Assembly: GCF_000020025.1 (NCBI RefSeq)
Contig: NC_010628.1
Coordinates: 1,530,001 to 1,562,000, forward strand
Reading direction: 5' to 3'
From: Nostoc punctiforme PCC 73102
Lineage (GTDB): Bacteria; Cyanobacteriota; Cyanobacteriia; Cyanobacteriales; Nostocaceae
Length of the DNA stretch: 32,000 bases
Numbering within the stretch: position 1 is the stretch's first letter; each line of letters begins with the position of its first letter. Below are positions 10,146 through 30,475 of this stretch, in pieces. The translations under genes were made by a program, and so were the position numbers. Below the pieces are notes generated by a model that saw nothing but the letters and a program-made list of their open reading frames with translations, made no database searches and was not told where the DNA came from.

Positions 10146-10447
10146 GATGACTAAGCGTTGAGTAGCTATTCTTGAGAAAAGAGATTAGGGATTTAAGCCC
10201 AAACCCCTTTAGAATTACCTTTCTAGCCTCTGGCGATTTATCACAGTTACGCAGGCTTTCAGTAAAATGCTACTTTATGACAAAACAAATACAACCTTAT
10301 ACGCAAATTTACACGTGTTATTTTAGCGTATTTATATTTATTGTGACGGATGACATTTCTCTTTTAAAAAACAAGTATAAAATTATACGACAATTCATGC
10401 ATATTTATGTTATGTAAATGTATTTCTTGGGACGGATGACTAAGCGT
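10146..10447 (+). promoter_or_regulatory. Local exact repeats: GATGACTAAGCGT twice and GACGGATGAC twice
   Basis: GATGACTAAGCGT occurs at 10146-10158 and 10435-10447. GACGGATGAC occurs at 10345-10354 and 10431-10440. All copies are in one orientation in the middle of the scyA / kinase divergent intergenic region. Confidence 0.4.
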
Positions 10448-10746
10448 ATTCTTCTATAGTTAAATCCCTGATATACTATAGTTAAGACAAATTAAGAAAA
10501 TGAATTAATGAGTTAAAATTTGTTGATTCAAGCCAAGCCAAGCCTGGTAAATTCATTTATGGTTGATAATCACACGACTCTACATTAGTAGTTGGTCAAA
10601 GTTGTTGCCTAGGGAAAAAGTAAGGAACGAGAAATTTTATCATTTAACCGTTTCCCAGTCGAAACCCAGTAACTTTGGGTTGGTGAACCATTACTTAGCT
10701 ATGGCGCAGGCTACATCTCTTTACTTGTTAAATGTACACAAATTTT

Positions 10747-10779
10747 CGTAATTACGAATTACGAGAAGCAGTACTGCTT
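10747..10779. promoter_or_regulatory. Two adjacent perfect palindromes about 350 bp upstream of the kinase gene
   Basis: CGTAATTACG (10747-10756, followed by a further AATTACG) and AAGCAGTACTGCTT (10766-10779). The central loop is too short for a good hairpin, so a dimeric protein-binding site is more likely than a terminator. Confidence 0.35.
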
Positions 10780-11128
10780 TAAATTTTTAATATATTTACT
10801 ACTTATAGATTGGCAATTTTCAACTCTTAGTTAATAAGATCTATTGACTATTATAGATTTGATTTGTCTATTTTTTGTATTCCTCAAAAGTTGTTTAAGT
10901 CAATAATAAATTTAAAATTAAATATTGAATTTTTTCTGAAAAACTTGGTTAAATTATTCCCTTGTTATTGGTATGATAAGTTTTGTTAACCTAGTCAGTA
11001 ATATTTTTAATTTACTAACTAATTGTATTTTGTAACTGCCTAAAACTGCACCAGAGTTTTTAGTTAGTTATGACTATCAACTCATTAATGGCTATGGTGC
11101 TGATTAATTACCAGGAGCAAGTAGGGAT

Positions 11129-13108: not shown

Positions 13109-13305
13109 ATGTTGAAATCAAGATTAGTTATTAATTAACAACTTAACAATCACAACTCTCGGAACGAAGTAATTAAGCTTATGCCTATTTCCATACTCCC
13201 TAAAAAGTTGAGTACAGCACGGCATAAATCCAACTAAACTAGGCAAAGTTCTGTCACAGTTTAATATTAACCAGCTTCTGCTACAAGTTATGGTAATAAA
13301 AAATT

Positions 13306-14157
13306 ATGTACGAATCGTCAAATAAAATTCTCGTCATTGAAGATGATAATATTACCCGCGATCTTTATTTAAAAGGTCTTAAGGCTAAAGGTTTTGATAC
13401 AATCAGTGCTGACAACGGTTTTGCTGGTATCCAACAAGCACTAGAGTGTATACCCGACTTAGTGATTTGCGATATCACGATGCCCGATATGGATGGTTAT
13501 AGCGTTTTAAATACGCTACGCCAAGATCCTCTTACGGCAATTATTCCCTTTATTTTTCTGACTGGGAGTAGTAACAAAGCAGATGTTCGCAAAGCTATGG
13601 AATTGGGAGCAGATGATTATCTTACCAAACCCTCGACACTAGATGAATTGCTCAGAGCGATCGCTATCCGACTAGAAAAGCAAGCTACTCTGCAATACTG
13701 GTGGGCTAAGAAATTTGAGAAAGCTCCAAAATCAGTATTTGTAGATCATACTCCAAGTGCGATCGCATCTGAAGAAACTTCTGATGAAGAAGCCACAATC
13801 CCTTCTAAGTCAATCTTTCCCTGTATTCCTCAATTAAAAGAAGTTTTCGACTTTATCGAAGCCCATTATCATCAAGGAATTACTTTGTGTGATGTGGCTG
13901 TTGCTGTTGGTTACTCACCTGCTTACTTAACTAACCGAGTCGCAAGGCAAACGGGAGAGACTGTAAACTGCTGGATTGTCAAACGCCGAATGGCAGGCGC
14001 TCGTTTTTTACTCCAAAATAATAATCAGACTATCGAGAAGATCGCCAAAGCATTAGGTTATCAAGATGTGTCTCATTTTTCTCGCCAATTTCGCCAACAT
14101 CACGGTTTACCTCCCCAAGCTTGGCGCAAACAGCATCAGCTTGTATCTCAAAAATAG
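13306..14157 (+). CDS. Response regulator, REC domain plus AraC-type HTH output
   Basis: 283 aa. REC motifs: IEDD, phospho-acceptor context LVICDITMPDMDG, and YLTKP. An acidic linker (SEETSDEEAT) follows. The C-terminal AraC signature is GYQDVSHFSRQFRQHHGLPPQAWRK. It corresponds in position and architecture to the regulator reported as required for scytonemin induction (recalled as NpF1278). Confidence 0.9.
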   Translation: MYESSNKILVIEDDNITRDLYLKGLKAKGFDTISADNGFAGIQQALECIPDLVICDITMPDMDGYSVLNTLRQDPLTAIIPFIFLTGSSNKADVRKAMELGADDYLTKPSTLDELLRAIAIRLEKQATLQYWWAKKFEKAPKSVFVDHTPSAIASEETSDEEATIPSKSIFPCIPQLKEVFDFIEAHYHQGITLCDVAVAVGYSPAYLTNRVARQTGETVNCWIVKRRMAGARFLLQNNNQTIEKIAKALGYQDVSHFSRQFRQHHGLPPQAWRKQHQLVSQK

Positions 14158-14209
14158 GTGAAACTTTGGTAAAAGTCGATTTACAGCAATTTTCATTTAG
14201 ACTAAAACT

Positions 14210-14296
14210 GGGAATTGGGAATTGGGCATTAGTTATATTTCCTCTGCTTCCCCTGCCTCCCCTGCTCCCTACTCCCTACTCCCTTCCCCCTGCCTC
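14210..14296. repeat. STRR-like short tandem repeats between the convergent regulator and AAA ATPase genes
   Basis: GGGAATT GGGAATT GGG at 14210-14226. Then a C-rich array, CTGCTTCCC CTGCCTCCC CTGCTCCCT ACTCCCT ACTCCCT TCCCCCT, at 14241-14296. The apparent + strand ORF 14121-14306 is just this repeat read as P/L-rich text. Confidence 0.75.
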
Positions 14297-15497
14297 AAAT
14301 AAATAGTTGCGTAAACTCATATATTAAATCCACCCTGCCCTTACGTAACATGGCTGGATCTAATCTTTCAGTAGTGTTACAAGTCATCAAGACAACTAAT
14401 CGTTGCTGCATCTGAATACCAGACTCATCAATGACACTTTGATACAAAGTGCCATCCAGCAAACTGAGAATATGTTCGGTTTTATTGTTGTATTGCGCTA
14501 CCTCAGAAGCACGATTTTGCGCTAGATTATCAGCTTCATTAATAACGATACAAATACGCTCTATGTAAGTTGGGGGGACAAAATTAGCGATCGCATCATG
14601 ATCTAAAATAAAAATTACATACCCTAAAGGTACAAGAATTTCTTTTGCTACAGCTTGTGTCCAGACTGTTTTACCAGTACCTGGTTTCCCATGTACAACA
14701 ACCGCTAACTGGTTTTGATTCAGAATCGCTTGCTGTACAGCATCAGTAAACTGTTGGATATCTGCCGGAAATGTGCGAATGGGAAATTGGCTGTGAACTT
14801 TACCTACACGACTTTGATATCCACTCAGCATAACTGCCAAGTCGTAAGTCGCCTTGTTAATTAGTGGGGCAAGATTCCTCGCCATTAAACTATATTGTCG
14901 CCGCCCGCGATCGTAGGGATCAATTTGCAACCAAACGTCATGCTTTGCCCAGTAAGCATAAACAGTATTAATCACGTCTAAGCGTTCCCAGCTAACAAAT
15001 CTATCTATAGGAAAATAAAAATCTCTTTCTGAATAATACTGAGTAATAATGTCAGGATTACCCAACACACCCAAAACTCGCAGTACAGTAATTTCTTGCA
15101 GTCGGTTAAGAACATAATCAATGGGAATGCTACTACGACTAACAAATTGAACGATAGGCGTTTCCGTACTCAAAACATCTTTGTAGCGATGATCTGGTGA
15201 TTGAGGATCTGGTGTGATGTAATTCCAAAATTTTTCAACTTCGTAGCGGGTATTATCAGATACAATATTTAATAAATTAGCCCACCAAGCATAATTATTT
15301 CTTCCCAGAATATCAGCAACATTACTTGCTAAATTCAAACTTTTTTGAGTTAATTCACGCGAGTCACTATACAACAGTTGCCATAAAAACCCCCAATCTA
15401 ACTCTCGGTTAAACGGTCGCCAGCCGCTAGCAAGCAAGCTTTGGCGGGTATTATTTGTAGGAGTGCCTTCATTGCTTCTAAAATAGTCAAAATCCAT
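14295..15497 (-). CDS. Classical-clade AAA ATPase with an uncharacterised N-terminal domain of about 250 aa
   Basis: 400 aa. Walker A GKPGTGKT, Walker B CIVINEADN, and the second region of homology MTCNTTERLDPAMLRKGRVD. The N-terminal 250 aa (MDFDYFRSNEGTPTNN...WWANLLNIV...) has no motif I recognise. The gene appears monocistronic, flanked by repeat arrays. Confidence 0.8.
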   Translation of the reverse strand: MDFDYFRSNEGTPTNNTRQSLLASGWRPFNRELDWGFLWQLLYSDSRELTQKSLNLASNVADILGRNNYAWWANLLNIVSDNTRYEVEKFWNYITPDPQSPDHRYKDVLSTETPIVQFVSRSSIPIDYVLNRLQEITVLRVLGVLGNPDIITQYYSERDFYFPIDRFVSWERLDVINTVYAYWAKHDVWLQIDPYDRGRRQYSLMARNLAPLINKATYDLAVMLSGYQSRVGKVHSQFPIRTFPADIQQFTDAVQQAILNQNQLAVVVHGKPGTGKTVWTQAVAKEILVPLGYVIFILDHDAIANFVPPTYIERICIVINEADNLAQNRASEVAQYNNKTEHILSLLDGTLYQSVIDESGIQMQQRLVVLMTCNTTERLDPAMLRKGRVDLIYEFTQLFI

Positions 15498-15980
15498 ATT
15501 TGTTTAGTTATGCAGCGTTAATAGAGTTATTTTGTGTTAAATATGAGATTTTAAAATTTTTCTTGTAATATCGAGTACTTGCATACAAATGGTAATTTTA
15601 TTTTCACCGTGCTGTACTGGCTAGGAAGTTTTTTTAATCTAACTCATTACTTATGTAGTATACTATACTACACAAGAACTACCTGCGTCAATTTTTTTGA
15701 CAAAGCAATTAGCTCTTAATGTCCCTCCGCCATTCATCTATCTCTACACTTCTGACTAATATCATGTCCGAAAGCACATAATCCCACTTTTGGCTGATGC
15801 CAAAGTTTCTCTCCCTGATAGCAAGGTGAGGTTCCGAATATTACCGATGAAGAAGGCAGTTATGCTGTGTTGCTGAGGCTTAAACCTCAGCTATTGCAAA
15901 TTTGTGTAGTATCTATTCAAGCTATAGGACTCATATTTGATTTTTGACAAAACACCGTACAACTCAAAAAGCCTTCTTTC

Positions 15981-16015
15981 CTATTGCCTCTTGCCTCTTG
16001 CCTATTGCCTATTGC
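15981..16015. repeat. STRR-like heptamer array (CTMTTGC, 5 copies)
   Basis: CTATTGC CTCTTGC CTCTTGC CTATTGC CTATTGC, about 40 nt downstream of the argJ-fragment stop. Confidence 0.8.
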
Positions 16016-16056
16016 CTAACTGTCTACACACACAATTTCACGTCTCTTCTTGTTAA

Positions 16057-16219
16057 TCAAGTTGAGTATTTGCCATTAATTTCTATATAACCCTCTGAAA
16101 GATCGCAACCCCATACAGTTGCAGAAGCTTCGCCAATATTGAGGCTAACATGAATATCTACTTTGTCTTTGGACATAATTTGCCGCAATTGTTCCAGATT
16201 TTCATTAGTTAAACTACTA
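16057..16219 (-). pseudogene. argJ: argJ paralogue, C-terminal fragment cut off by the IS630 insertion
   Basis: Manual minus-strand translation gives ...SSLTNENLEQLRQIMSKDKVDIHVSLNIGEASATVWGCDLSEGYIEINGKYST*. This is the conserved ArgJ C-terminus (ATVWGCDLS..Y..IN..Y.T). Not in the ORF track. Confidence 0.8.
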
Positions 16220-16285
16220 TAGCAATCCGGAATCATTTGTGAGAAAATACTGAAGTGAGTTTAAAGTAATCTTTGCGACATATAT

Positions 16286-17322
16286 TTGGATATAGCGATG
16301 TGGATACAATCATTAGAAGATTTTATCAAACATAGCCAGGATAAACGTGAAATTATACGAGCAATGGCAGTCAAGATGCTGCTGTGTGGATATAAACACA
16401 AGGAGATAATGCCAATTTTGGGTGTTTCGTCAGGCTTTATAAGTACATGGAAAAAAGCATTTTTTCAAAACGGAGTTGAGGGTTTAAAGTTAGCATATAA
16501 AGGAAGCAAAGGATTTTTGGATACACAACAACATAAGGCTGTGATTGAATGGTTGCAAACGAAGGAGCAATGGACTTTTAATGAGTTGGAGTACCAGCTT
16601 GTATCTAAGTATGGAGTGATATTTGAGTCTAAACGAAGTTACTATGATTTGTTTAATGAAGCACGTATTAGTTGGAAAAAAGCTCAAGCTAATAATCCAA
16701 AGCATGACCCGGAATTAGTCGCCTCAAAAAAAAAGAAATTTGTGAATTGTTGGAGACGAGACGAGCCGAAATTGAGTCGGGAGAGCTAGTTGTCTTCATG
16801 ATTGATGAATGCCACTTACTCTGGGGAGATATAATAGGATATATCTGGGGTAAAATGAGCGAGCGCATTTCAATTCCAGTTGTCAATGCTCGTGATAAAC
16901 AGACATACTTCGGTGCGTTAGACTATAAAACGAAAGAATTTCTCACCCATACTGCCAATAAAGGGAACTCGGAAAACACAATTGCTTTTTTGGAGTATCT
17001 CCGCTCACAACGTCCAGGTGCAAAACTTTTAATCATTTGGGATGGCGCTAGTTATCATCGCTCGCAACAGATCAAAGATTATTTAGACTCTTTGAATACT
17101 AACTTAGACAAAGAAGAATGGTTGATAACTTGTGAAAGATTTGCCCCGAATGCACCTCAACAAAATCCTGTAGAAGATATTTGGTTGCAAGGGAAAAGAC
17201 TGATTCGAGAGTTTTATTTTTTTTGTCATTCCTTCTCTATTGTCAAGGCTTTTTTTGAGTTATCACTTAATTGTCAAATTTTTAACTTTCCTAAGCTCCA
17301 TGAATATGGTGTTTTCTCATGA
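16286..17322 (+). CDS. IS630-family transposase, orfA (HTH) and orfB (DDE) joined by a -1 programmed frameshift
   Basis: orfA 16286-16789 is an HTH/winged-helix-like N-terminus. orfB is open from 16708 to 17322 and carries the DDE triad contexts FMIDECH, IIWDGASYH and QQNPVEDIW. The two frames overlap by 82 nt around an A9G run. Confidence 0.85.
16729..16735 (+). other. A_AAA_AAG -1 ribosomal frameshift heptamer of the transposase
   Basis: In the orfA frame the codons are TCA AAA AAA AAG AAA. The heptamer A AAA AAG at 16729-16735 is the classic X_XXY_YYZ slippery motif. A shift to -1 reads ...KKK EICELLETRRAEIESGELVVFMIDECH, continuous with orfB. Confidence 0.7.
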
Positions 17323-17339
17323 ACTATTTAGGATTGCTA

Positions 17340-18341
17340 TAGGATAAACTTTCACGTCATCAAAACTAATAACAACTCGTTCTGGATTGATCTGCTGTTC
17401 ATTTTCACATTTACCTATAGCCATCGCAACTCGTCCCCAATTCGGATCTGCCCCATAGACGGCGGTTTTTACTAATGGTGAATTGACAATTGCTTTAGCT
17501 ACTTTTTTCGCTTGTACATAGTTAATAGCTGAATCTACAGTCACCTCAATAATTTTGGTGGCACCTTCTGCATCTCTGGCAATTTTCAGCACCAATTCTT
17601 GTGCAACTTCTTGCAATGCGCTGGCAAAATCCGCCTCTGAAACTTCACCGGCTATTCCATTAGCTAGAATCACGGCGGAGTCACTAGTAGAAGTGTCAGT
17701 GTCTACACTCAAGCAGTTAAAGGTTTTATCTATAGTAGAGCGAAAAATAGAACGAAGGCTATTTGCAGAAATTGCCGCATCAGTAAAAAAGAAAGTTAAG
17801 AGAGTAGCCATATTAGGCTCAATCATGCCAACACCTTTGGCAATTCCTACCAGCTTGGCATTTCCTACTTGTCGTGTAGCTAGTTTTGATACTGTATCGG
17901 TGGTCATAATACCACGGGCTGCGGCATTAAAATCAGCAGGAGTCAATTTTTTGCCCAATCCTAATAAACCTGCTCGAATTTTTTCAATCGGGTAACGCCT
18001 GCCAATTACGCCTGTAGAAGCTATCACCATATTATGTGCAGCAATTCCAGTTTCAGTTGCAACTAATTGTAAAACTTCTTGGGCATCAGCAATGCCAACT
18101 GCACCATTAGCGACATTTGCATTCTTAGATATAACGACAATTCCTTGTACTTGTGAATCTTTTAAGTTGTCGCGGCTAATAGTAACACTTGGCCCGGCGA
18201 AAAGACTTTGAGTGAAGACTCCATCAGCAACACAAGGAACTTCTGATTTAATAAATACAAAATCATCAGTTGTATCGCGTATTCCTAAATTAGTAATAAA
18301 TGCGCTAAAACCTTGGGTGCAGAAGATATAGTTAATGCCAT
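17340..18341 (-). pseudogene. argJ: argJ paralogue (ornithine acetyltransferase / N-acetylglutamate synthase), N-terminal approximately 330 codons, interrupted by IS630
   Basis: The track ORF 17317-18030 (MVIASTGVIGRRYP...PNMATLLTFFFTDA... with the autoprocessing T motif) extends upstream in frame to ...GFSAFITNLGIRDTTDDFVFIKSEVPCVADGVFTQSLFAGPSVTISRDNLK... The only ATG (18341-18339; MALTISSAPKV...) is in a different frame. The 3' end reads into the IS (…VYPIAILNSS*). Confidence 0.8.
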
Positions 18342-19255: not shown

Positions 19256-20911
19256 TTATTCAAAAACATTGCTTTGCTCCTTTCCAATATTTAAATATTC
19301 AGTTTTCACTTGGCCGTATTCCAGCTTGACAATCCGATCTGCCAGGTAAAAATATTGGTCATCGTGACTAATAACTAGTACAGTTTTTCCTCTCTTCTTT
19401 AGCTCTACCAGAAGTTGAGTATAGAAAATTTCCTTGAATACAGGATCTTGATCTGATGCCCACTCATCAAACATATAAATGGGACGATCTTCTAAATAAG
19501 CAGTAACTAGAGCGAGACGTTTGCGCTGTCCTTGAGAAAGGTCCGTGGTAGAAAGTACTCCATTATTGACCTTAACTTTATGGTCTAATTGCAATTCAAT
19601 AAGGTACTTTCGAGTCTGAATATCCAGATCGCCACTATCCAAACCCAGGAAGCGATCAAAAAGATAAAAATCGGAAAATACTACAGAAAATTGCTGTCTA
19701 TACCACTCTAAATTATGATTATCAATGAGCTGATCGTCTAGATAAATATTTCCTGTTTCAGGAATGTAAAGCCCACTAATTAACTTAGCGAGGGTAGACT
19801 TACCACTACCGTTACCTCCTACAATAAAAACAAGTTCTCCTGGATGAAATTTTAATTTAATAGGCCCAAGGATAAAGTTGCTTTCTTCCCGTTCTTGATA
19901 ATAAGCATGGGTTATATTTACCAGTTCTAAGCAGTTCCAATATTGATCTGATGCCAGTGAAACATTATCACAAATTTCGTTTGAATAACTTGCTAATGAT
20001 AGACCCAGAGACTCCACTTTTTTTAAAGCTACTAAGGCTTTAGTTATGCTAGGCATCATACTCATAATATACTCTAGAGGTGATATCAAATAGATAATAG
20101 TTAGGGCATAAGCAGATAGAATTGCAGGTGGAATTTTATTGATAGTAGGGATGATGAATAAAAGTAACCCAATAGCAACAAAAAATAGAACTTGCCCCCA
20201 ACTAGCAGCCGCAGCAAAGATACTCATACCCACAACATTATGACGGCGGAATGATGAAGCAGTGGTATGGAGTTCTTCAGAGAGAAATGCTTGCCGTCGT
20301 CGGCGATGTAGTTTGAGTTCTTTTGTGCCTTGAATGACGCTACGGAAATGCTTAAATAATCTATCTTCTTGCTCACGAGCCAATTTTAAAAAAGACATGG
20401 CTTTCATCATTGGTAGTGAATAGCTGAATATTCCCAGGAACATAAAGCTAATACCTATGAGGAAAACAATTTTAGATAACCAACTCAGATAAATCAGACA
20501 GGCAATCACGATGGCAATATTAATGCACACAAAAGGGACAGTAATAACTGTGTTAGAGATTGTTTGAATATCCTCAGTGAGAACAGCTAAAAGTCCATGA
20601 GCACCTATTTGTTCTAAGTGACGTAAGGGCGAGGCAAGAATACTGCGGGTTAAAAGTACCCGCAAATTGAGAATTGCTTTTTGTGAAAGTTGTATCAATA
20701 AAACTTGAGAAACGAAATTAGCAATTAACCGCAGTAAACAAAGACCGACAAAACTCCAAATTAGTATAGTTTTTGATGGCTGATTTTGACTCAATGTCGT
20801 ATTAATTAGGGCAATTAGACCAGCAGCAGTGCCGCCGCTGAAAATACCAGCTAAAATTGCAAAACAGAGCTGAAGAGAAGAAGTACGCAATAGAAGACGG
20901 ATCAGGTTCAT
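19256..20911 (-). CDS. Cyclic-peptide/siderophore-type ABC exporter (fused permease and ATPase)
   Basis: 551 aa. Six-TM N-terminal half. Walker A GGNGSGKST, signature LSQGQRKRLA, Walker B PIYMFDEWASDQD. Size and layout match the SyrD/PvdE-like cyclic peptide transporter family. Confidence 0.85.
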   Translation of the reverse strand: MNLIRLLLRTSSLQLCFAILAGIFSGGTAAGLIALINTTLSQNQPSKTILIWSFVGLCLLRLIANFVSQVLLIQLSQKAILNLRVLLTRSILASPLRHLEQIGAHGLLAVLTEDIQTISNTVITVPFVCINIAIVIACLIYLSWLSKIVFLIGISFMFLGIFSYSLPMMKAMSFLKLAREQEDRLFKHFRSVIQGTKELKLHRRRRQAFLSEELHTTASSFRRHNVVGMSIFAAAASWGQVLFFVAIGLLLFIIPTINKIPPAILSAYALTIIYLISPLEYIMSMMPSITKALVALKKVESLGLSLASYSNEICDNVSLASDQYWNCLELVNITHAYYQEREESNFILGPIKLKFHPGELVFIVGGNGSGKSTLAKLISGLYIPETGNIYLDDQLIDNHNLEWYRQQFSVVFSDFYLFDRFLGLDSGDLDIQTRKYLIELQLDHKVKVNNGVLSTTDLSQGQRKRLALVTAYLEDRPIYMFDEWASDQDPVFKEIFYTQLLVELKKRGKTVLVISHDDQYFYLADRIVKLEYGQVKTEYLNIGKEQSNVFE

Positions 20912-21008
20912 AAGTAATTAACAACCCACAGCATTCGTTCTGACGCGAAGAGTTTTCTTAAAGAGTAATTAAGCAGATATGTACAACTCACAGACTTTCG
21001 TTATTTGC

Positions 21009-22298
21009 CTACCTATTAACTACCTGTGCAGCACCTTTTACCTCCAGTTTTTTCGATGCTCCAACATGCTGATAAAGTTTTTCTTCAAATTTTTCCATAC
21101 ACGCCGACCAATCAAATTTTTGTATGTAGAGGCGAGCCTGTCGAGACATTTCTTCTTTTAGAGCCGGATTTTCTAGAATCGCAATCACCTTCATAGCGAA
21201 ATCTTTTGGGTTGTTAGGTTCAGCTAGGAAGCCGTTGCGACCAGAGGAAGAGGATATCTGCTCTGAAGTTGAAGGCGCAAGGACCGCAACTACAGGGGTT
21301 CCAGAAGCCAGCGCTTCGTTAGTTGTGGTGCAAAAGTTTTCGGTGACGGAGGCATTGACAAATACATCTGCTCGCGCAAACCAGCCCAAAAGTTCTGTAC
21401 CGTGAGACTCACCCCAAACCGTAATACCAGATTCAAACTTTTTGGCACGCCGACGGATCTCTTTATCCTGGGGACCACTACCAACAATCACTAAATGGAC
21501 ATCAGGAATTTTGGCAGCAATGAGCACAAATGCATCTAGGAGTTGCTTGACGTTCTTTTCTGCACTAATGCGTCCGACAAACAACAGAGTGGGTCGTTGA
21601 TCGCCAGGAATAGGGTCATAACAAATATTTCGGGGATGAAATTTTTCGCAATCAATTCCTTGATAGGGAAGATATTCTAGACGTTGGGCTGCCAGCAATT
21701 TGTACTTGGTGAGTTGTTCTTGGGAAGAAAAGTAATTAACATCATAAGCCTCACTCAATTGCTTAATTAAAATGGGAATGATCGGACGAATAAATCTAAA
21801 AGCCCACTCTCCTATGTAATATCGAATATAAGCAACTATATCGGTATGGAATATAGATATTATTGGTGTGCCTGTTCGCTTTGTGTATTCAGTGCCAATA
21901 GGGCGACCATAACCTTGCAAAAAAAGTGAATAGTAACCGATCATTCCTGGCGCTTCTTCAACCACCACAATGTCAGGCTGAAAATTTAATAACAGCTTGG
22001 TATCACTCCAATATCGATAGTGCAATGGTTCGGGAAGAGACTTGTAGAATATCATTGGTTTGCTTGGGTAAGCATAAGAAGAAAAGTTGGAGAAAGACTG
22101 AACTTCCTCCAGCCTTAACATGGGGCGATCGCGAACTTCTTTGGGGTACAGATAATTGACTCCAGGATGGATCAGAAAGACTTCATGTCCCTGCTGTAGC
22201 AACCAGCGAACACGCTGGTGTACTCCCATAGAAACCCCCGACATAAACGGAGCATATAATGCTGTAAAAATCGCAATACGAAGAGGTTGTTTATTCAT
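21009..22298 (-). CDS. Glycosyltransferase family 4 (retaining GT-B)
   Basis: 429 aa. N-terminal IAIFTALYAPFMSGVSMGVHQRVRWLLQQGHEV. C-terminal domain with LLFVGRISAEKN and the E-x7-E motif ENFCTTTNEALASGTPVV. Confidence 0.85.
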   Translation of the reverse strand: MNKQPLRIAIFTALYAPFMSGVSMGVHQRVRWLLQQGHEVFLIHPGVNYLYPKEVRDRPMLRLEEVQSFSNFSSYAYPSKPMIFYKSLPEPLHYRYWSDTKLLLNFQPDIVVVEEAPGMIGYYSLFLQGYGRPIGTEYTKRTGTPIISIFHTDIVAYIRYYIGEWAFRFIRPIIPILIKQLSEAYDVNYFSSQEQLTKYKLLAAQRLEYLPYQGIDCEKFHPRNICYDPIPGDQRPTLLFVGRISAEKNVKQLLDAFVLIAAKIPDVHLVIVGSGPQDKEIRRRAKKFESGITVWGESHGTELLGWFARADVFVNASVTENFCTTTNEALASGTPVVAVLAPSTSEQISSSSGRNGFLAEPNNPKDFAMKVIAILENPALKEEMSRQARLYIQKFDWSACMEKFEEKLYQHVGASKKLEVKGAAQVVNR

Positions 22299-22329: not shown

Positions 22330-22722
22330 TTAACACTTGGGATGAAAACTTTCTAAATCAACTACGGTGATTAAATTATCTTTTGGATGTCTGTTTTTCT
22401 CAGCTATTCCTGTATGCGCTGCATCCCCTCGAAAGATGCACAAAGGTTTTGACACAGCATTCTTAGCAGCTTTAGCTATATTGACAGTGCTCCTAACATT
22501 TACCTCATGAAAATGGTCAATTGACCCACCTTCTTTAGCTAGTTCAGCCGTATGTGTAACTACATCTACTGCCTGACAAGCCATTTGGGCAGTAGCTGGA
22601 TTAGTAACACTACCAACAATCACCTCAACACCGAGTTTTTGCGCTTTTTTAGCTTTATCCGAGAAATTTTGTAGTCCACGGACTTTCATTCCCTTTGCTA
22701 TAGCTAACTCAGCAAAACGCAA
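22330..22722 (-). pseudogene. NAD-dependent epimerase/dehydratase (extended SDR) fragment, probably decayed
   Basis: 130 aa from a TTG start. It resembles only the first third of an SDR (KGMKVRGL...LGVEVIVGSVTNP...VDVVTHTAEL...FHEVNVRSTVNIAKAAK). The upstream in-frame sequence reads IIIIEINGFIS where the GxxGxxG motif should be. The catalytic YxxxK region is missing. Confidence 0.55.
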
Positions 22723-22919
22723 GCTGATAAATCCATTAATTTCTATAATGATAATAGTTTGGTTTTCGATTTTTACAGATTTAATCTACAACTTTACTGT
22801 TGGTACAAGTTCAGGTGTTTTCTCCACTTGTTACATATATAGCAAAAGTCATTTGAATACTACCTAAAAATCTCATTAGCTTGTGATTTATAAGTATATT
22901 ATGACAGCAAGATACTCAA

Positions 22920-23188: not shown

Positions 23189-25066
23189 TTAGACTCTACA
23201 TTCTTCTACCTTCGATCTCAGAGAAGCAAAATGTTTTCCACCTAATTCAATTTGCCCTTCTGCACACCCAGTTTTCAATCTTTCGACTAAATAATCCAAA
23301 TCATGAGCTATAAAATTTGTGCCATGATCTGGTTCTACTAAACTAACTAAAGATATATTTCTAGCTTGTTGTTCGACCAAGCTAGAAATACCCAGAAAGT
23401 TAAATACACCAGATTCATAGGTTCCACAAGGTACCGAAGGATTATTTACTCCAACACAGTATTCATTTGGTTTAAACCAATCAAATGCTGGGTAGCCGTG
23501 AAAATGAACAATTGGCGCACCATTTTTAATTAATTCTGGTGTATACAAAGCCGCAGAAAGACTAATCGCAAGCATGACATAAATATCATAAGAAGGTTTC
23601 ATATCTGCTAATTCCGAACGAATCACTTTAGGAAGTTGGAGATATAGCTTTTCTTTCAACCCAATTCTGATAATATCGTCAGCGATATTCAAGTCTGTTT
23701 TATTTGACCCTGAACGAGAACTTACAAGCCAAATATCGGGGATTTGTCTAAATACATATTTTTCTAATATTTTGATTTTGACATAGCGTCTACCATTTTC
23801 ATTTTGACGAAGTTCGTTACTACTAAATCCCTTAACAGGTAGTAGACTTTCCCACTCTTTTTTAGTTACTTCTACATCTCCAAAATATTGTGGAGGTTCA
23901 GCATAAGCAACAAAGCCATAAGAGACACCTGTTCTACCATTTATGATGACGCTGACAATATCTCTATGGGATTTTCTTTTAATCACTTCATTCAATTTAA
24001 AACCAGGAGGGAATAAACCTGTTGATGCCAATTCCTGACCCAATTTCACTAATTTTGCAGCATAGCTAGATTCTTGAGGATTATACTGTCCTAGCTCAAA
24101 TCGGCTCAGTAAAAGTGGGGCAATCGGCACAAAAACTTTAGGTATTAGCGATTTTAAGACAAACCTTTCTATCTCGCTCCTGGAAAAAATAGAGTCTGAA
24201 AGATTCATATTTAGTATAGAAATTTTATTAGATGATACTCCAATAACTACTTCGGAAAATGTTCTAATTAAAGTGTTTATTCCAATATTTATTTTTTGTT
24301 TATATGGAATAGCAGGGTTAATAAAATCATGGTCTATGTCAGTAATTACAATCACTTGCGTTTTGCTAGGGTTGTCAACATATTTAGCTGCATGATCTTC
24401 AGCCCAACTGCTTAATCTAGCTATTTTTATCACAGGTATTTTTCGCTCGTTTAAGATAAATTGAGAATAAATTTTGTAGAGGATTTCTGCTACGAATATA
24501 CCCAATTTTCTCAAAAAGGAAGGAGGGATTTCTACATCAATAATTGCGTTAACTTCTGACTTAACTCCCTTGAATTTAAAGTTTCTCTTTTTGTTAATTA
24601 CCGGGATTATTAGATCATATTTGAATTCTGCGATCGCTTCATCCCAAGATAAAACTTTGACACCATAATCTCTCAGTTTAACTTCCAACTCTTGGCGAAA
24701 TTTCCGAATTTCTTGATTATTGTAGCTATTAGGCAAAGGTTTAAATGTAACTATCAACTTCTGAGCCATAGCTTTAGTATCAATAATTGGCGACTTATAT
24801 TCTACAGTTGATTGCTCTGAAAAACCTCCAATTAAACGACCAATAGTTTGTAAATTTAGTCCTTGACTTAAAGGGACTGAATTTAAGTCGGAAGCTACAT
24901 CCATCTCATGCAGAAATGCCACAATATCTGCTTTGTAAGCAGCTATTTTTGCTTGCATATCTAATGTAATTAATCCCTTTGGTGAGCGAATCCTTAACTT
25001 GTCGTTATCAACCCATAAATGAACACCTTGTTGAGTAAGGTTTGCTACAAGCTCTGATGCGTTCAT
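23189..25066 (-). CDS. Protein with a TubC-type N-terminal docking domain fused to an unrecognised domain of about 560 aa
   Basis: 625 aa. Residues 1-55 (MNASELVANLTQQGVHLWVDNDKLRIRSPKGLITLDMQAKIAAYKADIVAFLHE) fit the beta-beta-alpha-alpha NRPS/PKS docking-domain pattern L..L...GV.LW.EGD.LR..APKG.LT.EL...L...K.EI..FL. The remainder has no A, C, KS, MT, TE or other motif I can identify. Confidence 0.7.
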   Translation of the reverse strand: MNASELVANLTQQGVHLWVDNDKLRIRSPKGLITLDMQAKIAAYKADIVAFLHEMDVASDLNSVPLSQGLNLQTIGRLIGGFSEQSTVEYKSPIIDTKAMAQKLIVTFKPLPNSYNNQEIRKFRQELEVKLRDYGVKVLSWDEAIAEFKYDLIIPVINKKRNFKFKGVKSEVNAIIDVEIPPSFLRKLGIFVAEILYKIYSQFILNERKIPVIKIARLSSWAEDHAAKYVDNPSKTQVIVITDIDHDFINPAIPYKQKINIGINTLIRTFSEVVIGVSSNKISILNMNLSDSIFSRSEIERFVLKSLIPKVFVPIAPLLLSRFELGQYNPQESSYAAKLVKLGQELASTGLFPPGFKLNEVIKRKSHRDIVSVIINGRTGVSYGFVAYAEPPQYFGDVEVTKKEWESLLPVKGFSSNELRQNENGRRYVKIKILEKYVFRQIPDIWLVSSRSGSNKTDLNIADDIIRIGLKEKLYLQLPKVIRSELADMKPSYDIYVMLAISLSAALYTPELIKNGAPIVHFHGYPAFDWFKPNEYCVGVNNPSVPCGTYESGVFNFLGISSLVEQQARNISLVSLVEPDHGTNFIAHDLDYLVERLKTGCAEGQIELGGKHFASLRSKVEECRV

Positions 25067-25131: not shown

Positions 25132-26466
25132 CTAGTTATGCATAAAACTAGAGTCTAAATTTAAATTGCAAATGTCAAAAATATAAGACATAACATTGTT
25201 TACAAGAAGATCCATAGTACCCTGACTGATTGAAGGTTGAGAAAAAACAAAATTTAACAGCATTTTTCCTTGAAAAGTTGAGGCGTGGATAACAAAAACA
25301 CCTGCATACAAAGCGTGGGAACCAGCGAAACTGATTTCTTCTAGTTCAAATTCACCGTAATATTTGGGTATATTTACTTTGCCAACATTAGAAACAGACA
25401 CTGTGGCAGCTACTTGCTTGGGATAGATAAAACAAAAATCTATGAGATGCTTGGCAATCAAAATCATTTTAAAGAGATCGCCGGATTTTTTACTAACTTC
25501 AAGTTTTTGTTTCACCTCACGGGCTAATTCCCAAAAAGACGTGTTTCTCCCTATAGTATGAAATTCCATAATAGAGGAGGCTAATACAGCCATCTGATCA
25601 TCACTGATTGCTGGTTCTAGGTGTCTCCTCAAATCAAAATATGATAGGCAGTTTACTCGTGCATTTTTGCTATTATCTTTAATTATTTTTCTCCCTATTG
25701 TAAACATCAGTACAGCACACAAAGCACTATGTACTGTTGTATTTTCTTGCCGACAATGATTTACAAATTTTTGGGTTAAGTCTTCGTCAAGTTGTCTGTG
25801 GATAATATTGCAACTACGCTTTTCAATAGATACGTACTTTTCAAAACCTAATGTTTTTGGTCGATTCCAGATTTTTTGTAACCCAAGCTGCAACAAGAAG
25901 ATAATGCTATTTATCCTACCTCTAAATCCCTTAGTCCATTTGGGCATTAGTTCTTCGATAGGTGGAAGTGGAGTTAAGCTAATAACTGGATTAATTGGTT
26001 TGCCAGATACAATTTTTTGACAACAAGTCAAGATTTCTGAGTGAAGTTGGATGGATGACAAACCATCTGCGATCGCATGGTGTATTGTTGTAATTAGGTA
26101 ACTTACATGCTGATCGCCCAAAAGATGAATAAGAACAACTCGCAGTAAACCTTTGCTACTATCAATTCCGTTGTTCATCTCTTCATCAACCACTTCTTGC
26201 CACTGCTCATTGTCTAACTTTTTGACAACGCGTAAAGCAATATTTGCTATTTCTTGACTTTGAAAGATAAGACTATTTTTATCTCCAGTAATTTTAGAAT
26301 TTAGACGAGGGTGGCGACATTGGATTACGTCTAAAGCCTGTGTCAGAGTTTCTTCGCAGATATAGCCATTGATGCGACTAATAGTTACTATGTTCCAGGT
26401 TTTAGCACGGCTATTTAAGATTTCCATAGCTTGCTCAAGGTGTCCCAGCTTTCTGTTGTAAATCAT
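25132..26466 (-). CDS. Stand-alone condensation-domain-family acyltransferase (HHxxxDG)
   Basis: 444 aa. Active-site motif TTIHHAIADGLS about 130 aa from the N-terminus. Size and layout resemble free C domains and PapA5/WS-DGAT-like enzymes. Confidence 0.8.
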   Translation of the reverse strand: MIYNRKLGHLEQAMEILNSRAKTWNIVTISRINGYICEETLTQALDVIQCRHPRLNSKITGDKNSLIFQSQEIANIALRVVKKLDNEQWQEVVDEEMNNGIDSSKGLLRVVLIHLLGDQHVSYLITTIHHAIADGLSSIQLHSEILTCCQKIVSGKPINPVISLTPLPPIEELMPKWTKGFRGRINSIIFLLQLGLQKIWNRPKTLGFEKYVSIEKRSCNIIHRQLDEDLTQKFVNHCRQENTTVHSALCAVLMFTIGRKIIKDNSKNARVNCLSYFDLRRHLEPAISDDQMAVLASSIMEFHTIGRNTSFWELAREVKQKLEVSKKSGDLFKMILIAKHLIDFCFIYPKQVAATVSVSNVGKVNIPKYYGEFELEEISFAGSHALYAGVFVIHASTFQGKMLLNFVFSQPSISQGTMDLLVNNVMSYIFDICNLNLDSSFMHN

Positions 26467-26648: not shown

Positions 26649-26954
26649 TCAAATCTCAAAAATCTCTGACTGCGAAGCTTTGGATTCTTCCGCTAAACGC
26701 TGGGATAACGTTTCAATAGTGGGGTAATGCCACAATAAAATTGGAGATAGCTCAAAACCAAACAACTTCTCGGCTTTGCTAACAAGAAACATTGCCTGGG
26801 CTGACTCTAAACCGTAGCTGTCTAAAGGTTGACTAACATCTATATCCTTGGATTCAACTCCTAGCTGCTCTGCAATATGAGATACTAACCAAGCTTGAAT
26901 TTCTTCTGCGGTATAAGACTGCTTTTTAGTTGTCTCAGGAGTAGACTGACTCAT
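26649..26954 (-). CDS. Discrete acyl/peptidyl carrier protein
   Basis: 101 aa. [70 protein letters not shown] fits the PKS-type ACP pattern. The phosphopantetheine Ser lies in GLES, a variant of GLDS. Confidence 0.85.
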
Positions 26955-27500: not shown

Positions 27501-28799
27501 TTAGGCTACTTCAACAACTTTTTGAATTTCCTTAATTGCCAAAGCATCCTTGTAACGCTCATAGCGATTACCTAGCTTACTTGTATTTAACTCCAATCCC
27601 AATGCCTTTATCAGACGCTCTAGCTGCTGAGATTTGTATTGCCAACTCTTTTGTTCCATGTAACCAATTATATTGCGCCACTTTGAACTCACCTGTCTCC
27701 AAGAATTAACTAATTGATTTATATCCGCTTGCTTATCAGCTAATTCAGGATGGTGCAGAGACATACTTAGTGAGTTCAGCCCAACTCTAATATCAGTTAG
27801 CATGATTCCTTGCACAGTGAGGTCTAATTTCTCCAAATAAGTAGTGTAACTAGCACTAATATAGTCTTCCACAATTAGCTGCATGAAATATCGAACGAAA
27901 TCCTGAGCCTCTGGAGGAGCTACCCTATACAGTTCTACTCCTAAATCAAAAGATGTTGTGTAATGACGTGCTTCATCTGTTAAGTGGCCTTGATTCAATT
28001 CAAAAGCTAATGGTTCATAATCAAACTTTTCAGGTGAATCAAATAAATAGGCTTCGCTTTTTTTTAACTCCACGTTAGCCATGTACCGATACAGCAGAGT
28101 TAAGCTACCCAAGCCATTTTCTTGAACTTTTTCGGCGGGTAGCATCCTCATGGCATCCCCAATCATAAACCTTAAATTTCGATATGTAAAATTTTGGCCT
28201 CGTTGCTGCGTCTGTTCTACAATCTTTTTAAGAAAGCTTTTCCCCTTTTGAAGATTCAACAGAGTTTCATTTAAATCTTCATCAAAAGTAAAACGGGTAT
28301 CGAAGTTTTCAAAATCTGATTGAGGTATTGCACCAACAGAACCATAGAAAAAACCAGGCTCATCAAAGGAGCTTTGAATTCCTATTTCTCGGCAGACCAT
28401 ACTATATACGGTTCTAAAAGACCAAATATGATCCATTTCTTCATTAGTTTCCTGGTGAAGAATCATAAATTCGTCCGAGTAGGAAGCAAAAACTTTTTCA
28501 GCAATACTCATATTGGATATAAGAGACTGATATTCGCTATTGGCAACATACTTGTAGAAGTTAGCAAAAAATGTCGCAGATAAAATTGACATTTGACGAG
28601 CATTAAAAGAAAATAAATACTCACAAATAGGTATGGGTAAGGGTAGCATTCCTGGATGAGAGTAAAGTTTTTCTCCTTTAATTCCCTGCTTGCTCATAGC
28701 TATAGCAACAGTTTTTAATTCTAAAGGCTGAGTATGTGCCTGCTCGAAAAGCTTATTTTGAATCTTGGGAATTCGGTTATCAATTTTAACAGTATTCAT
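27501..28799 (-). CDS. Ferritin-like diiron-carboxylate enzyme (AurF/CylC-like superfamily; oxygenase, desaturase or halogenase)
   Basis: 432 aa, predicted helical. Two ExxH motifs about 160 aa apart (NEEMDHIW and TDEARHYT), each preceded by a candidate carboxylate-bearing helix (ANSEYQSL; ANVELKKSE). Sits 14 nt downstream of the PfaD-type gene and 37 nt upstream of the ferredoxin gene. Confidence 0.65.
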   Translation of the reverse strand: MNTVKIDNRIPKIQNKLFEQAHTQPLELKTVAIAMSKQGIKGEKLYSHPGMLPLPIPICEYLFSFNARQMSILSATFFANFYKYVANSEYQSLISNMSIAEKVFASYSDEFMILHQETNEEMDHIWSFRTVYSMVCREIGIQSSFDEPGFFYGSVGAIPQSDFENFDTRFTFDEDLNETLLNLQKGKSFLKKIVEQTQQRGQNFTYRNLRFMIGDAMRMLPAEKVQENGLGSLTLLYRYMANVELKKSEAYLFDSPEKFDYEPLAFELNQGHLTDEARHYTTSFDLGVELYRVAPPEAQDFVRYFMQLIVEDYISASYTTYLEKLDLTVQGIMLTDIRVGLNSLSMSLHHPELADKQADINQLVNSWRQVSSKWRNIIGYMEQKSWQYKSQQLERLIKALGLELNTSKLGNRYERYKDALAIKEIQKVVEVA

Positions 28800-28813: not shown

Positions 28814-30475
28814 TTAATTAAAAGTAACTGGACGATATTCGCTGTAATAAGCGGGCATTTGTAAGCCCTGAACTTTTAAACTTTGTATCCGGTATAAAAA
28901 TGCTGCTCCGGTCATAATATGGTTAGCAACATCAACTACCTGACGATTATTTGATTCAGATAAGTAAGAACCTCTAACCCAGTCATTGAAACTGCCCATA
29001 GCAGGGCCACACCAGATTTGATAATCCATTTCTCTGCCTTTTTCACCAAAGTTAGACCAACGGGATGATAATCCAAGATACCAGCGAAAAATTAAAGCCA
29101 TCTTCAGTTTGGGATTATTAACAGCCTTGGCCAATTTATCAGGATTGCGTTGAGATAAATAAGTAACTGTCTCTTGCCACACTGCATCCAAGCTCTTTTT
29201 CAAAACTTGTTTTTCTAATTTATCTCTTTCCACTAAGGGAATATCTTCAATTGAGTCATAGTTTTTGTATAGTTCAAACATTTTTTGGGCTCGTAAAGGA
29301 AAGAGAGTTCCTCTTTTGAGTACTTGGAGTTTTACCCCCATTTCAAACATATCTGCTGCCGGAGCCATCATCACATCAGCCATCTCGGCTTGAGCCAATA
29401 ATTGTTTAGTATGTTGAGAAGTTCCGGCTTCAATGCAAGACTGGTTAATCGAGCCTGTTACAACATAAGCAGCACCCATCATAAAGGCAGCTAATGCTGA
29501 TTGTGGCGTAGCAATTCCTCCTGCTACTCCGACTCTGACAGGTTTTTCATAAGAAAATTTCCTTTGAATTTCATCTCTCAATTCTAAGATGGAAGGTAAG
29601 AGACAAACTAGAGGACGATTATCTGTATGACCACCAGAATCTGCTTCGGCAGTAATATCGTCAGCTACAGGAATTTTTTCAGCTAGAGTTGCTTGTAATT
29701 CACTGATAAGACCTTGCTCAACTAATTGCTTCAAAATTTTTGTTGGAGCAGGTTGCAGAAATTTGATTGCAACTTCTCTCCGAGAAACTTTGGCTATAAT
29801 TTTATTTTTGATTTCGATTTTATTGTCCGCATTCAAACTAAGTCCAGCAGCGCGGTAGTAAACAATGTTGTCAGTCAAATCGAGGAAGGCGGAAGCTTCT
29901 ATTGTTCTCACCTGATATTTAAGATACAAATCAACAACACCGCGTTCAATAGCAGGCTCACTAGGACTGTGGAGTAAGTTAAATGCGTAAGGTCCTTCGG
30001 GTAAAGCTTGCTGAATACGCTTAATGGCTGCTTCGACCCGAGCAGGAGATAAGCCACCAGCACCAAATGAACTTAAAATTTTCTCTTTGCCAAGGGCAAT
30101 TACCAGTTCTTCAGAAGCAATCCCTTGAGCCATTGCGCCCGTGGCATAAGCGTATTTTACACCATGAAATTTGAGAAAAGTTGAATCGCCTAATTGCCGA
30201 GTTGACAGAGGTGGAGTAGATACTAATATTTCTGCCTGTCCTGTTTTTCCTTGGTTGCAAGGATATAGATAACCTTCGTTAGTTGCACCAACTTTTCCTT
30301 CAACTCTAATAATATAACAAGGCTTTTCTAAATTTAGAAGCTTAGATTTTATGCCTTTTTCGTTAAAAGATACAAAATCTAAAATACCTTGCCAAACTTG
30401 ATTTTGTTGGGAAATATAGTCTGAAATTTTTAGGTAGTTACCATTGTTATTTAGTATATTATCTGCACCAATCAT
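28814..30475 (-). CDS. PfaD-family trans-acting enoyl reductase (nitronate-monooxygenase fold)
   Basis: 553 aa. Characteristic PfaD blocks: FHGVKYAYATGAMAQGIASEELVIALGKEKILSSFGAGGL, AFNLLHSP, SGGHTDNRP, and the C-terminal extension WYLGLSSRWS. Confidence 0.85.
   Translation of the reverse strand: MIGADNILNNNGNYLKISDYISQQNQVWQGILDFVSFNEKGIKSKLLNLEKPCYIIRVEGKVGATNEGYLYPCNQGKTGQAEILVSTPPLSTRQLGDSTFLKFHGVKYAYATGAMAQGIASEELVIALGKEKILSSFGAGGLSPARVEAAIKRIQQALPEGPYAFNLLHSPSEPAIERGVVDLYLKYQVRTIEASAFLDLTDNIVYYRAAGLSLNADNKIEIKNKIIAKVSRREVAIKFLQPAPTKILKQLVEQGLISELQATLAEKIPVADDITAEADSGGHTDNRPLVCLLPSILELRDEIQRKFSYEKPVRVGVAGGIATPQSALAAFMMGAAYVVTGSINQSCIEAGTSQHTKQLLAQAEMADVMMAPAADMFEMGVKLQVLKRGTLFPLRAQKMFELYKNYDSIEDIPLVERDKLEKQVLKKSLDAVWQETVTYLSQRNPDKLAKAVNNPKLKMALIFRWYLGLSSRWSNFGEKGREMDYQIWCGPAMGSFNDWVRGSYLSESNNRQVVDVANHIMTGAAFLYRIQSLKVQGLQMPAYYSEYRPVTFN

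Follow-up and report, generated by a model that had tools for sequence, protein, structure and literature searches.

The published trans-acting enzymes that carry a beta-hairpin docking (bHD) domain act on carrier-bound substrates. In the described pairs, the ligand of the docking domain is a short linear motif (SLiM), a tail of fewer than 15 residues whose last five form a strand against the beta2 strand of the domain, with salt bridges or charged contacts; such motifs are known on acyl carrier proteins (ACPs) and peptidyl carrier proteins (PCPs), and the linker of the docking domain comprises about 20 amino acids (PMC9113145). Known partners of bHD domains include condensation (C), epimerization (E), cyclization (Cy), thioesterase (TE), and methyltransferase (MT) domains, as well as thioester reductase (TR) and halogenase (PMC9113145, citing Kosol 2019). 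The present analysis concerns a gene of Nostoc punctiforme PCC 73102 in which a docking domain of this type precedes a core of a different kind. It is an ATG-started open reading frame (ORF) at 23189..25066 on the minus strand of a 32,000-nucleotide stretch (contig NC_010628.1, positions 1,530,001 to 1,562,000), referred to below as the window. It is a real, conserved gene, and its product has 625 amino acids (aa). The core is predicted to end in a divergent class II aldolase-type domain, and the reading favored here, with a probability of roughly 0.45, is that of a metal-dependent enzyme that is docked on an ACP and takes the acyl chain off its thioester, by chain release or by acyl transfer. 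The exact reaction is a guess.

The closest described arrangements are those of the AerJ halogenase (8aqq) and the enacyloxin bHD-C protein (6cgo), in which a separate enzyme bears a TubC_N-type domain at its N-terminus, connected by a flexible linker, and the carrier is a discrete protein with a short acidic tail. The same elements are encountered around the Nostoc gene. In the enacyloxin system, the docked enzyme performs chain release, according to the structure title and PMC9113145. The Nostoc protein differs from both in its docked part, which is no C, TE, MT, TR, or halogenase unit but is predicted to be a core of two domains that includes a class II aldolase fold. It also differs in its host line, which is a lipid polyketide synthase (PKS) of the polyunsaturated fatty acid (PUFA)-synthase/hgl type rather than a nonribosomal peptide synthetase (NRPS) or a modular PKS. 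The recruited enzyme family is new, and literature searches found no description of it, whereas the docking-based recruitment principle is known. The original prediction, made from the sequence alone, had pictured a new catalytic or scaffolding partner recruited by docking; the partner is indeed conserved and almost certainly catalytic, but its novelty is confined to the fold. The same prediction had named C, adenylation (A), and ketosynthase (KS) domains as the usual neighbors of such docking domains, which leaves out the TE, MT, TR, and halogenase partners.

The arrangement around the gene in Nostoc PCC 7524, 'Nostoc azollae', and a further Nostocales genome (given below) probably corresponds to the hgl-like islands of heterocystous cyanobacteria. 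These islands are compact, highly conserved, and widespread in Nostocales, including Raphidiopsis brookii D9, and contain homologues of hglE_A, hglF, hglG, hglC, and hglA together with hgdC and hgdB; their product, which is not the heterocyst glycolipid, was left unassigned in a 2025 survey (PMC11804610). The related loci contain PfaD, KS-CLF, KR-DH, and KS-AT-ACP genes, and R. brookii D9 encodes a member of the family studied here (P0412). In this comparison, hgdB and hgdC were not identified, and the window ends inside the PKS genes. In the main text of PMC11804610, the islands are defined by the genes shared with the hgl island, and the module of ACP, C protein, and docking-domain protein is not discussed.

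Architecture and predicted active site

A three-part architecture, consisting of a docking domain with its linker, an alpha/beta domain, and a class II aldolase-fold domain, is well supported. The docking domain (24902..25066, minus strand) is matched by Pfam TubC_N (PF18563) over residues 5-54 with E=7.1e-18 and 64.9 bits, the cut-off being 26. Sequence matches of the 625-aa protein in the PDB lie only within residues 2-63 and are led by the AerJ bHD domain (8aqq, 1.3e-6) and TubC (2jug, 2.3e-6), with the docking domains of EpoB and Kj12 as weaker matches in the same region. In Foldseek comparisons, the modeled docking domain superimposes on AerJ bHD 8aqq with a template-modeling (TM) score of 0.85-0.86 and a root-mean-square deviation (rmsd) of 0.7-0.8 Å, and it also matches the Kj12 and TubC NMR structures. 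The modeled secondary structure comprises a helix at residues 3-12, strands at 16-20 and 23-27, and helices at 35-43 and 45-61. The TubC-type domain originally predicted for the first 55 or so residues is thus confirmed at the level of both sequence and structure. Its beta2 strand (K23-L-R25-I-R27) carries the basic residues K23, R25, and R27; the segment K-L-R/N-I-R-S-P-K-G is close to invariant, and IRSPKG is kept in 18 loci. Residues 56-68 (24863..24901, minus strand) form a flexible linker, with predicted local distance difference test (pLDDT) values below 50 at residues 57-62, and are missing from relatives that have no docking domain.

Even at E<=10, neither Pfam nor NCBIfam gives a match for residues 60-625, and neither database recognizes a canonical assembly-line domain (C, A, KS, AT, KR, TE, TR, MT) in them, in agreement with the original prediction that no assembly-line motif follows the docking domain. 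A profile built from 61 family sequences found no PDB sequence, aldolases included, and searches of Pfam, NCBIfam, and the PDB with the family alignment gave nothing above chance. The interpretation of residues 60-625 as an NRPS fragment was rejected, and a weak profile similarity of the middle domain to the anticodon-binding region of GlyRS (E of about 2) was not significant and was not used. The description of these 560 or so residues as unrecognizable consequently holds for sequence searches, but not for the last 300 or so, which are recognized by structure and profile-profile comparison.

The protein has 707 homologues, the best 120 of which are full-length Nostocales proteins with 65-90% identity; in the source databases they are labeled "TubC N-terminal docking domain-related protein", "hypothetical protein", or, wrongly, "non-ribosomal peptide synthase". 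When residues 60-625 were used to query 1.84 billion cluster representatives, a small family of only 128 clusters, in three groups, was recovered. The first group consists of cyanobacterial proteins with the docking domain. The second comprises docking-less proteins with 33-45% identity, mostly from metagenome-assembled genomes of Dadabacteria/Thermodesulfobacteriota, and the third comprises proteins of about 545 aa with 22-28% identity from the candidate phyla radiation (CPR)/Patescibacteria (Giovannoni-, Yonath-, Staskawicz-, and Taylorbacteria). None of the docking-less proteins contains a Pfam domain. The core starts at about residue 69, with the helix LQTIGRLIGG common to the docking-less relatives, and residues 69-625 are a stand-alone enzyme family, of which Dadabacteria and CPR bacteria have docking-less versions. 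Across 91 sequences, some 27 positions do not vary: N288, K310, P317, R378, G380, S382, G384, F385, P443, S452, G453, K456, D464, S492, D494, G516, H521, H523, G539, V545, C547, E578, P579, H581, G582, and N584.

The first AlphaFold model, based on 33 close homologues (pLDDT 73.7), was replaced by a second one based on 91 sequences including the CPR group (pLDDT 86.4, predicted TM score 0.84). The top PDB match of the first model was rhamnulose-1-phosphate aldolase (E=7.8e-5), followed by fuculose-1-phosphate aldolase. With the second model, the eight Foldseek matches with E<=1e-3 come without exception from the class II aldolase superfamily, namely seven entries of RhuA (3.4e-5 to 1.4e-4) and AraD 1jdi (5.2e-4, TM 0.54); the decarboxylase HMPDdc (2z7b), which has the same fold, is matched at E=0.019. 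The modeled fold spans residues 323-615 approximately, and the divergent class II aldolase/adducin-type domain is assigned by Foldseek and hhalign to residues 323-625 (23192..24100, minus strand). The original prediction had proposed modeling and a fold search for residues 60-625, and it is their C-terminal half that receives a fold in this way. The preceding half of the core, residues 69-322 (24101..24862, minus strand), is modeled as an alpha/beta domain with pLDDT mostly 80-98. This half has no detectable relative, is basic (pI 9.6), occurs in every full-length family member, those of CPR and Dadabacteria included, and carries the family-invariant N288, K310, and P317. Its best fold matches (flavodoxin-like, Rab) reach just E of about 0.24-0.29, which is not significant, and were not used.

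The family profile was also aligned with five E. coli K-12 sequences (FucA, AraD, RhaD, UlaF, and YgbL), of which FucA was confirmed to be identical to 1fua. The hhalign comparison gave P=4.2e-4, pairing LVSSRSGSNKTDL...KPSYD with LITPTGIPYEKL...LPSSE, and a C-terminal sub-alignment extended the match co-linearly through all catalytic motifs. In a column-permutation null, the full profile scored 28.7 against 14.4±2.9 (maximum 25.7), with none of 60 permutations reaching the observed value, and the sub-alignment scored 24.2 against 13.5±2.9 (maximum 25.0), with one of 60 reaching it. The sequence signal for class II aldolase kinship is therefore modest by itself, but it agrees with the fold search, and the paired catalytic residues coincide exactly with positions that are invariant in the family. 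Alignment and model together suggest that residues 323-625 are distantly related to the class II aldolase superfamily without belonging to Pfam family PF00596.

The residues concerned, all encoded on the minus strand, can be described with reference to FucA. H521-F-H523 (23498..23506) is paired with the FucA Zn ligands H92 and H94; both histidines are invariant in 61/61 and 91/91 sequences, and H-x-H-G is present in nearly all of 62 full-length representatives. H581-G582 (23321..23326), preceded by the likewise invariant E578 and P579, is paired with FucA H155-G156, which provides the third metal ligand, and the spacing from H-x-H to the distal H is 58 residues versus 61 in FucA. P491-S492-Y493-D494 (23585..23596), paired with P70-S71-S72-E73 of FucA and with P-S-S-D of AraD and UlaF, is predicted to contribute an acidic metal ligand or catalytic residue and a phosphate-binding Ser. 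S452-G453-S-N-K456 (23699..23713) is paired with T43-G44, the phosphate-binding turn of FucA; R451, just before this segment, and K456 vary little or not at all, and the equivalent of the phosphate-binding N29 of FucA (in the G380-V-S382 stretch) has no confident alignment. A complete His3/Asp metal site thus appears to be kept, together with a predicted Ser-Gly/Pro-Ser anion (phosphate) site, and the aligned site residues do not change between Nostoc and CPR although overall identity is 22-28%. Besides these sites, R378, R451, K456, C547, E578, and N584 are family-specific invariant residues. C547, in NPSVPCGT (23426..23428), is invariant in 61/61 and 91/91 sequences and is a candidate nucleophile, with no counterpart role in known class II aldolases.

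The family shares with the class II aldolase/adducin superfamily (RhuA, FucA, AraD, YgbL/OtnC, NovR) the predicted fold and the motifs H-x-H...H-G, P-S-x-[DE], and [ST]-G in the same order. It departs from known members in several ways. Its first and second motifs are separated by an insertion of about 60 residues, which exceeds the one in RhuA; an additional alpha/beta domain is always fused to the aldolase-type domain; and one further Cys as well as several Arg and Lys residues are invariant. Its genomic context is lipid rather than sugar metabolism, and it is missed by PF00596.

Carrier-protein tail and gene neighborhoods

In the window, as in 18 related cyanobacterial loci, the docking-domain gene is adjoined by a discrete ACP of about 100 aa. 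The ACP of the window has 101 aa (26649..26954, minus strand; PP-binding E=2.3e-14), and its acidic C-terminal tail is present as quoted in the original prediction, with the last 11 residues (26652-26684, minus strand), conserved in the 19 loci, as the proposed SLiM. In 19/19 loci, the tail follows the consensus SESE[IV]FEI and, with its variants written out, reads ...SESE[IV/T][F/L][E/Q][I/L/V]-COOH. Among 582 stop-to-stop frames of at least 80 aa, this ending is confined to the 19 ACPs, one in each locus, the motif having been derived from the same 19 tails in which it was then counted. The ACP tail and the docking domain are both near-invariant and consequently offer too little variation for covariation analysis. 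The idea that the tail is the docking ligand is strengthened by its conservation in all 19 loci, its restriction to the ACP, and its fit with the published properties of SLiM-bHD pairs. The tail is therefore a candidate ligand with strong circumstantial support.

The neighborhood survey covered 19 cyanobacterial loci with 10 kb on each side. In the window, the cluster lies entirely on the minus strand, in the order PfaB-like AT-containing PKS gene (C-terminal part), PfaD, a 432-aa ORF, ACP, PapA5-like gene, and the 625-aa gene; beyond the latter, on the same strand, are a truncated short-chain dehydrogenase/reductase (SDR), a GT4 glycosyltransferase, and an ATP-binding cassette (ABC) exporter. 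The PfaD-family enoyl reductase (28814..30475, minus strand; TIGR02814 E=2.7e-200) is kept upstream in related loci and marks the cluster as a PUFA-synthase/hgl-type lipid PKS. The PapA5-like C protein is a stand-alone condensation-type O-acyltransferase of 444 aa without a docking domain (25132..26466, minus strand; PapA_C 7e-17, Condensation 2.8e-13, NCBIfam PapA5 1.8e-18). It is found beside the ACP and the docking-domain gene in the window and in five further loci (L001, L003, L004, L019, L023) and is a probable off-loading partner. In Nostoc PCC 7524, in another Nostocales genome, and in 'Nostoc azollae', the order is KS-AT-ACP, KR-DH, KS-CLF, PfaD, C, ACP, and docking-domain protein. The last three genes are arranged as ACP-C-docking-domain gene in the window and as C-ACP-docking-domain gene or ACP-docking-domain gene-C elsewhere.

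A second island type, found in 9 of the 19 loci (L016, L017, L020-L022, L024, L029, L091, L092, at about 9300-17900 in each), consists of the ACP, the docking-domain protein, and a HetN-like SDR. PfaD lies upstream in seven of the nine, a HetI-like phosphopantetheinyl transferase lies beyond the SDR on the opposite strand in seven, and no C protein occurs within 10 kb in any of them. Because these nine loci have no PapA5-like C protein, an obligatory pairing of active copies with an O-acyltransferase was rejected for cyanobacteria. Five of the loci also have two conserved ORFs of about 450 and 260 aa; a conserved 455-aa neighbor was ruled out as a C domain. Cylindrospermum sp. NIES-4074 has both island types (P0054 and L091). 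Between the PfaD (HglA-like) and HetN-like genes, the ACP and the docking-domain protein correspond in position to HglB/HetM, an ACP-thioester reductase. In the hgl island of Anabaena PCC 7120, HglB (ACP-TR) occupies the spot held by the ACP and the docking-domain protein in the nine loci. The likeness is one of gene position alone: unlike HglB/HetM, the 625-aa protein has no NAD(P)-binding reductase domain, and reductive release to an alcohol is therefore not expected.

In two family members (P0134 and P0366), the predicted active site is dead: R378, S452, G453, K456, S492, D494, H521, H523, C547, E578, and H581 are replaced or deleted, C547 by Pro. These proteins keep the docking domain and the fold and have gained a C-terminal PF00975 thioesterase. 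Their cluster contains a fatty-acid desaturase in the place where the C protein would be, has no C protein, and encodes an ACP that keeps the tail (AESEVFEI). No thioesterase homologue was found in the other 18 cyanobacterial loci. In the simplest reading, the gained thioesterase compensates for the dead site, so that the live site would take part in chain release. The same thioesterase brought up P0414, a 653-aa metagenomic protein in which a GT4 glycosyltransferase is fused to a PF00975 thioesterase.

The context of the docking-less relatives was obtained by clustering the ORFs around 82 loci. Among the 66 Dadabacteria-type loci with upstream sequence, 65 have an acyltransferase of about 240 aa (PF01553/AGP_acyltrn) directly upstream on the same strand, and 59 of these 65 have a YegS/BmrU lipid kinase further upstream. 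Downstream, a tartronate-semialdehyde-reductase-like (GarR) dehydrogenase occurs in 39 loci, a histidine phosphatase in 30, and an AcuI-like reductase in 27. In all five CPR lineages, the PlsC-type acyltransferase, the core protein, and a seven-transmembrane (7TM) histidine kinase are kept and the outer flanks differ; this group independently confirms the acyltransferase pairing. The HisKA_7TM gene follows the CPR core gene at a gap of a few bases (L009, L012, L096, L097, L098), and no response regulator is visible near it in these loci.

Several further features of the window can be described. The SDR remnant (22456-22776, minus strand) corresponds to residues 1-107 of a 336-aa 3beta-HSD/NAD_binding_4-type reductase, is 59% identical to the intact gene at 12029-13039 of L003, and lacks the remainder before the GT4 gene; the listed ORF 22330-22722 belongs to this remnant. 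At 19256-22298 (minus strand), the cluster is followed by the GT4 glycosyltransferase and an ABC exporter of the cyclic-peptide type. Close counterparts of both are missing from the other cyanobacterial loci, where the former has no match and the latter has only weak matches of 27-28% in two loci. The 432-aa ORF between PfaD and the ACP (27501-28799, minus strand) has no Pfam match, a weak one to NCBIfam TIGR04061, "putative natural product biosynthesis protein" (E=0.002), and no counterpart in the 18 related cyanobacterial loci. A 237-aa ORF at 17317-18030 (minus strand) matches positions 95-322 of the 377-position ArgJ profile and represents either a truncated argJ or a gene that starts in another frame. 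About 1.8 kb at 9300-11100, upstream of a PAS histidine kinase and an AraC-type response regulator, contain no ORF of at least 100 aa, and positions 10001-11000 have the lowest G+C content of the window, 0.31 against 0.35-0.49 over most of it.

Proposed role and competing explanations

In the favored mechanism, the docking domain would clamp the C-terminal tail of the discrete ACP with which the hgl-like, PfaD-containing lipid synthase terminates, and docking would bring the acyl-ACP thioester to the metal centre. The chain would then leave the carrier onto an oxygen nucleophile held in the phosphate pocket, either inorganic phosphate or a phosphorylated C3 alcohol such as glycerol-3-phosphate or dihydroxyacetone phosphate (DHAP); alternatively, a related metal-assisted release, e.g., onto water, may take place. 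C547 could form an acyl-enzyme intermediate. A second O-acyltransferase would act afterwards, the PapA5-like C protein in the window and the PlsC-type enzyme in Dadabacteria and CPR. The 625-aa protein would thus do what is done in sister clusters by the thioester-reductase half of HglB or by a thioesterase. A role in release or acyl transfer is preferred because the three recurrent contexts lie where an acyl chain leaves its carrier or passes to a lipid acyltransferase.

A number of points weigh against this assignment. No class II aldolase-fold enzyme is known for acyl transfer or thioester cleavage. The known enzymes of this fold perform enolate chemistry, as aldolases, epimerases, dehydratases, or decarboxylases. 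The favored role consequently demands new chemistry in the fold, which is its chief weakness. The fold likeness itself is moderate (target-normalized TM 0.44-0.54, rmsd 7-11 Å, about 300 columns), and Pfam Aldolase_II (PF00596) misses the 625-aa protein at E<=10 and matches one of 61 family members (E=0.2). In some loci, the gene is followed by a 3beta-HSD/NAD_binding_4-type SDR that could be a reductive release enzyme, and with loci covering 10 kb on each side a distant TE or TR is possible. The 66 Dadabacteria-type loci are closely related and therefore amount to few independent observations. Finally, CPR bacteria are reported to be without ACP-dependent machinery (PMC7242380), so that the common substrate of the family cannot be acyl-ACP as such.

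The same fold evidence can be read as pointing to an enzyme that makes the acceptor. By enediolate chemistry (aldol, retro-aldol, decarboxylation, or epimerization) on a small phosphorylated hydroxy-carbonyl C3/C4 compound, the protein would supply a head group or backbone for the neighboring O-acyltransferase, and docking would place the acceptor by the acyl donor. Every characterized match of the fold search acts on such small phosphorylated substrates, and the S-G and P-S motifs for phosphate binding are preserved without variation. C3 hydroxy-acid metabolism is also suggested by the GarR-like dehydrogenase or histidine phosphatase directly downstream in Dadabacteria (the 39 and 30 loci given above). 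In E. coli, YgbL, a decarboxylase of the class II aldolase fold, adjoins YgbJ, annotated as L-threonate dehydrogenase, and the Dadabacteria dehydrogenase matches the same family. A dead variant without a C protein would, moreover, need no acceptor. However, no C-type acyltransferase lies within 10 kb of the active copy in nine cyanobacterial loci, and the thioesterase fused onto the dead site is easier to explain if the live site releases the chain. In addition, the published bHD-fused trans-acting enzymes (TE, MT, TR, halogenase) work on assembly lines (PMC9113145). Taken together, a role in acceptor formation is the main alternative, though a somewhat unlikely one.

The inferred docking to the ACP would equally suit an enzyme that tailors the chain on its carrier, with the metal site chelating a beta-keto or beta-hydroxy acyl-ACP and epimerizing, dehydrating, cleaving (retro-aldol/retro-Claisen), or decarboxylating it without release. 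The 1,3-dioxygenated intermediates of a PKS containing KR, DH, and enoyl reductase (ER) functions would resemble the chelating substrates of the superfamily, and HetN-like or 3beta-HSD-like reductases adjoin the gene. Nevertheless, tailoring of this kind is quite improbable: the near-universal pairing with PlsC-type enzymes in Dadabacteria and CPR and the gain of a thioesterase upon death of the site would remain unexplained, and clusters with an active copy would be left with no recognizable release enzyme. The dead variant, with its fold, docking domain, and ACP tail all preserved, indicates that the fold can be valuable without catalysis, as in a non-catalytic scaffold or adaptor that would bind the ACP and recruit a further protein such as the C protein. 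Such a function is hard to reconcile with the invariance of about 27 residues, including four metal ligands and the Cys, from Nostoc to CPR at about 25% identity, which is an active-site-like pattern, or with docking-less relatives in organisms that have no such PKS, and it is very unlikely for the family. The weak hint of a GT-A-type glycosyltransferase in the original prediction came from a local pattern only, a beta-strand followed by D-x-D (VIVITDIDHD). This reading is effectively refuted: D245 is Pro in 52 of 91 sequences and in the majority of distant relatives, D247 is variable, and LIIPVINKK lies in a gapped, indel-prone hairpin. No GT-A structure was matched in the fold searches and no glycosyltransferase profile match was obtained, and the cluster already has a separate GT4 gene.

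Significance for the family and its hosts

With regard to the origin of the family, a speculative and rather improbable extension of the favored reading may be formulated. The docking-less core would be a new class II aldolase-fold acyl-transfer enzyme of membrane-lipid synthesis, acting just before the PlsC-type enzyme in Dadabacteria and CPR, e.g., by forming acyl phosphate or by acylating glycerol phosphate or DHAP. Nostocales would later have co-opted it, through addition of the docking domain, for chain release in an orphan lipid pathway of the PUFA-synthase type. A bolder variant, Claisen-type C-C coupling of an acyl thioester with the DHAP enediolate, is possible. CPR genomes encode PlsY and PlsC but no PlsX (PMC7242380), and the docking-less acyl-transfer core, if correctly interpreted, could fill this gap.

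The analysis provides a first structural and mechanistic handle on a gene conserved throughout the heterocystous cyanobacteria, the Azolla symbiont with its reduced genome among them. If the docking is as proposed, a new fold joins the enzymes that beta-hairpin docking domains recruit to carriers, an addition of use to pathway engineering. The lipid-linked distribution of the family, which has no Pfam model, reaches from Nostocales to CPR bacteria, and in two lineages with reduced genomes it is strictly paired with lysophospholipid-type acyltransferases, which hints at a missing step in the assembly of bacterial lipids.

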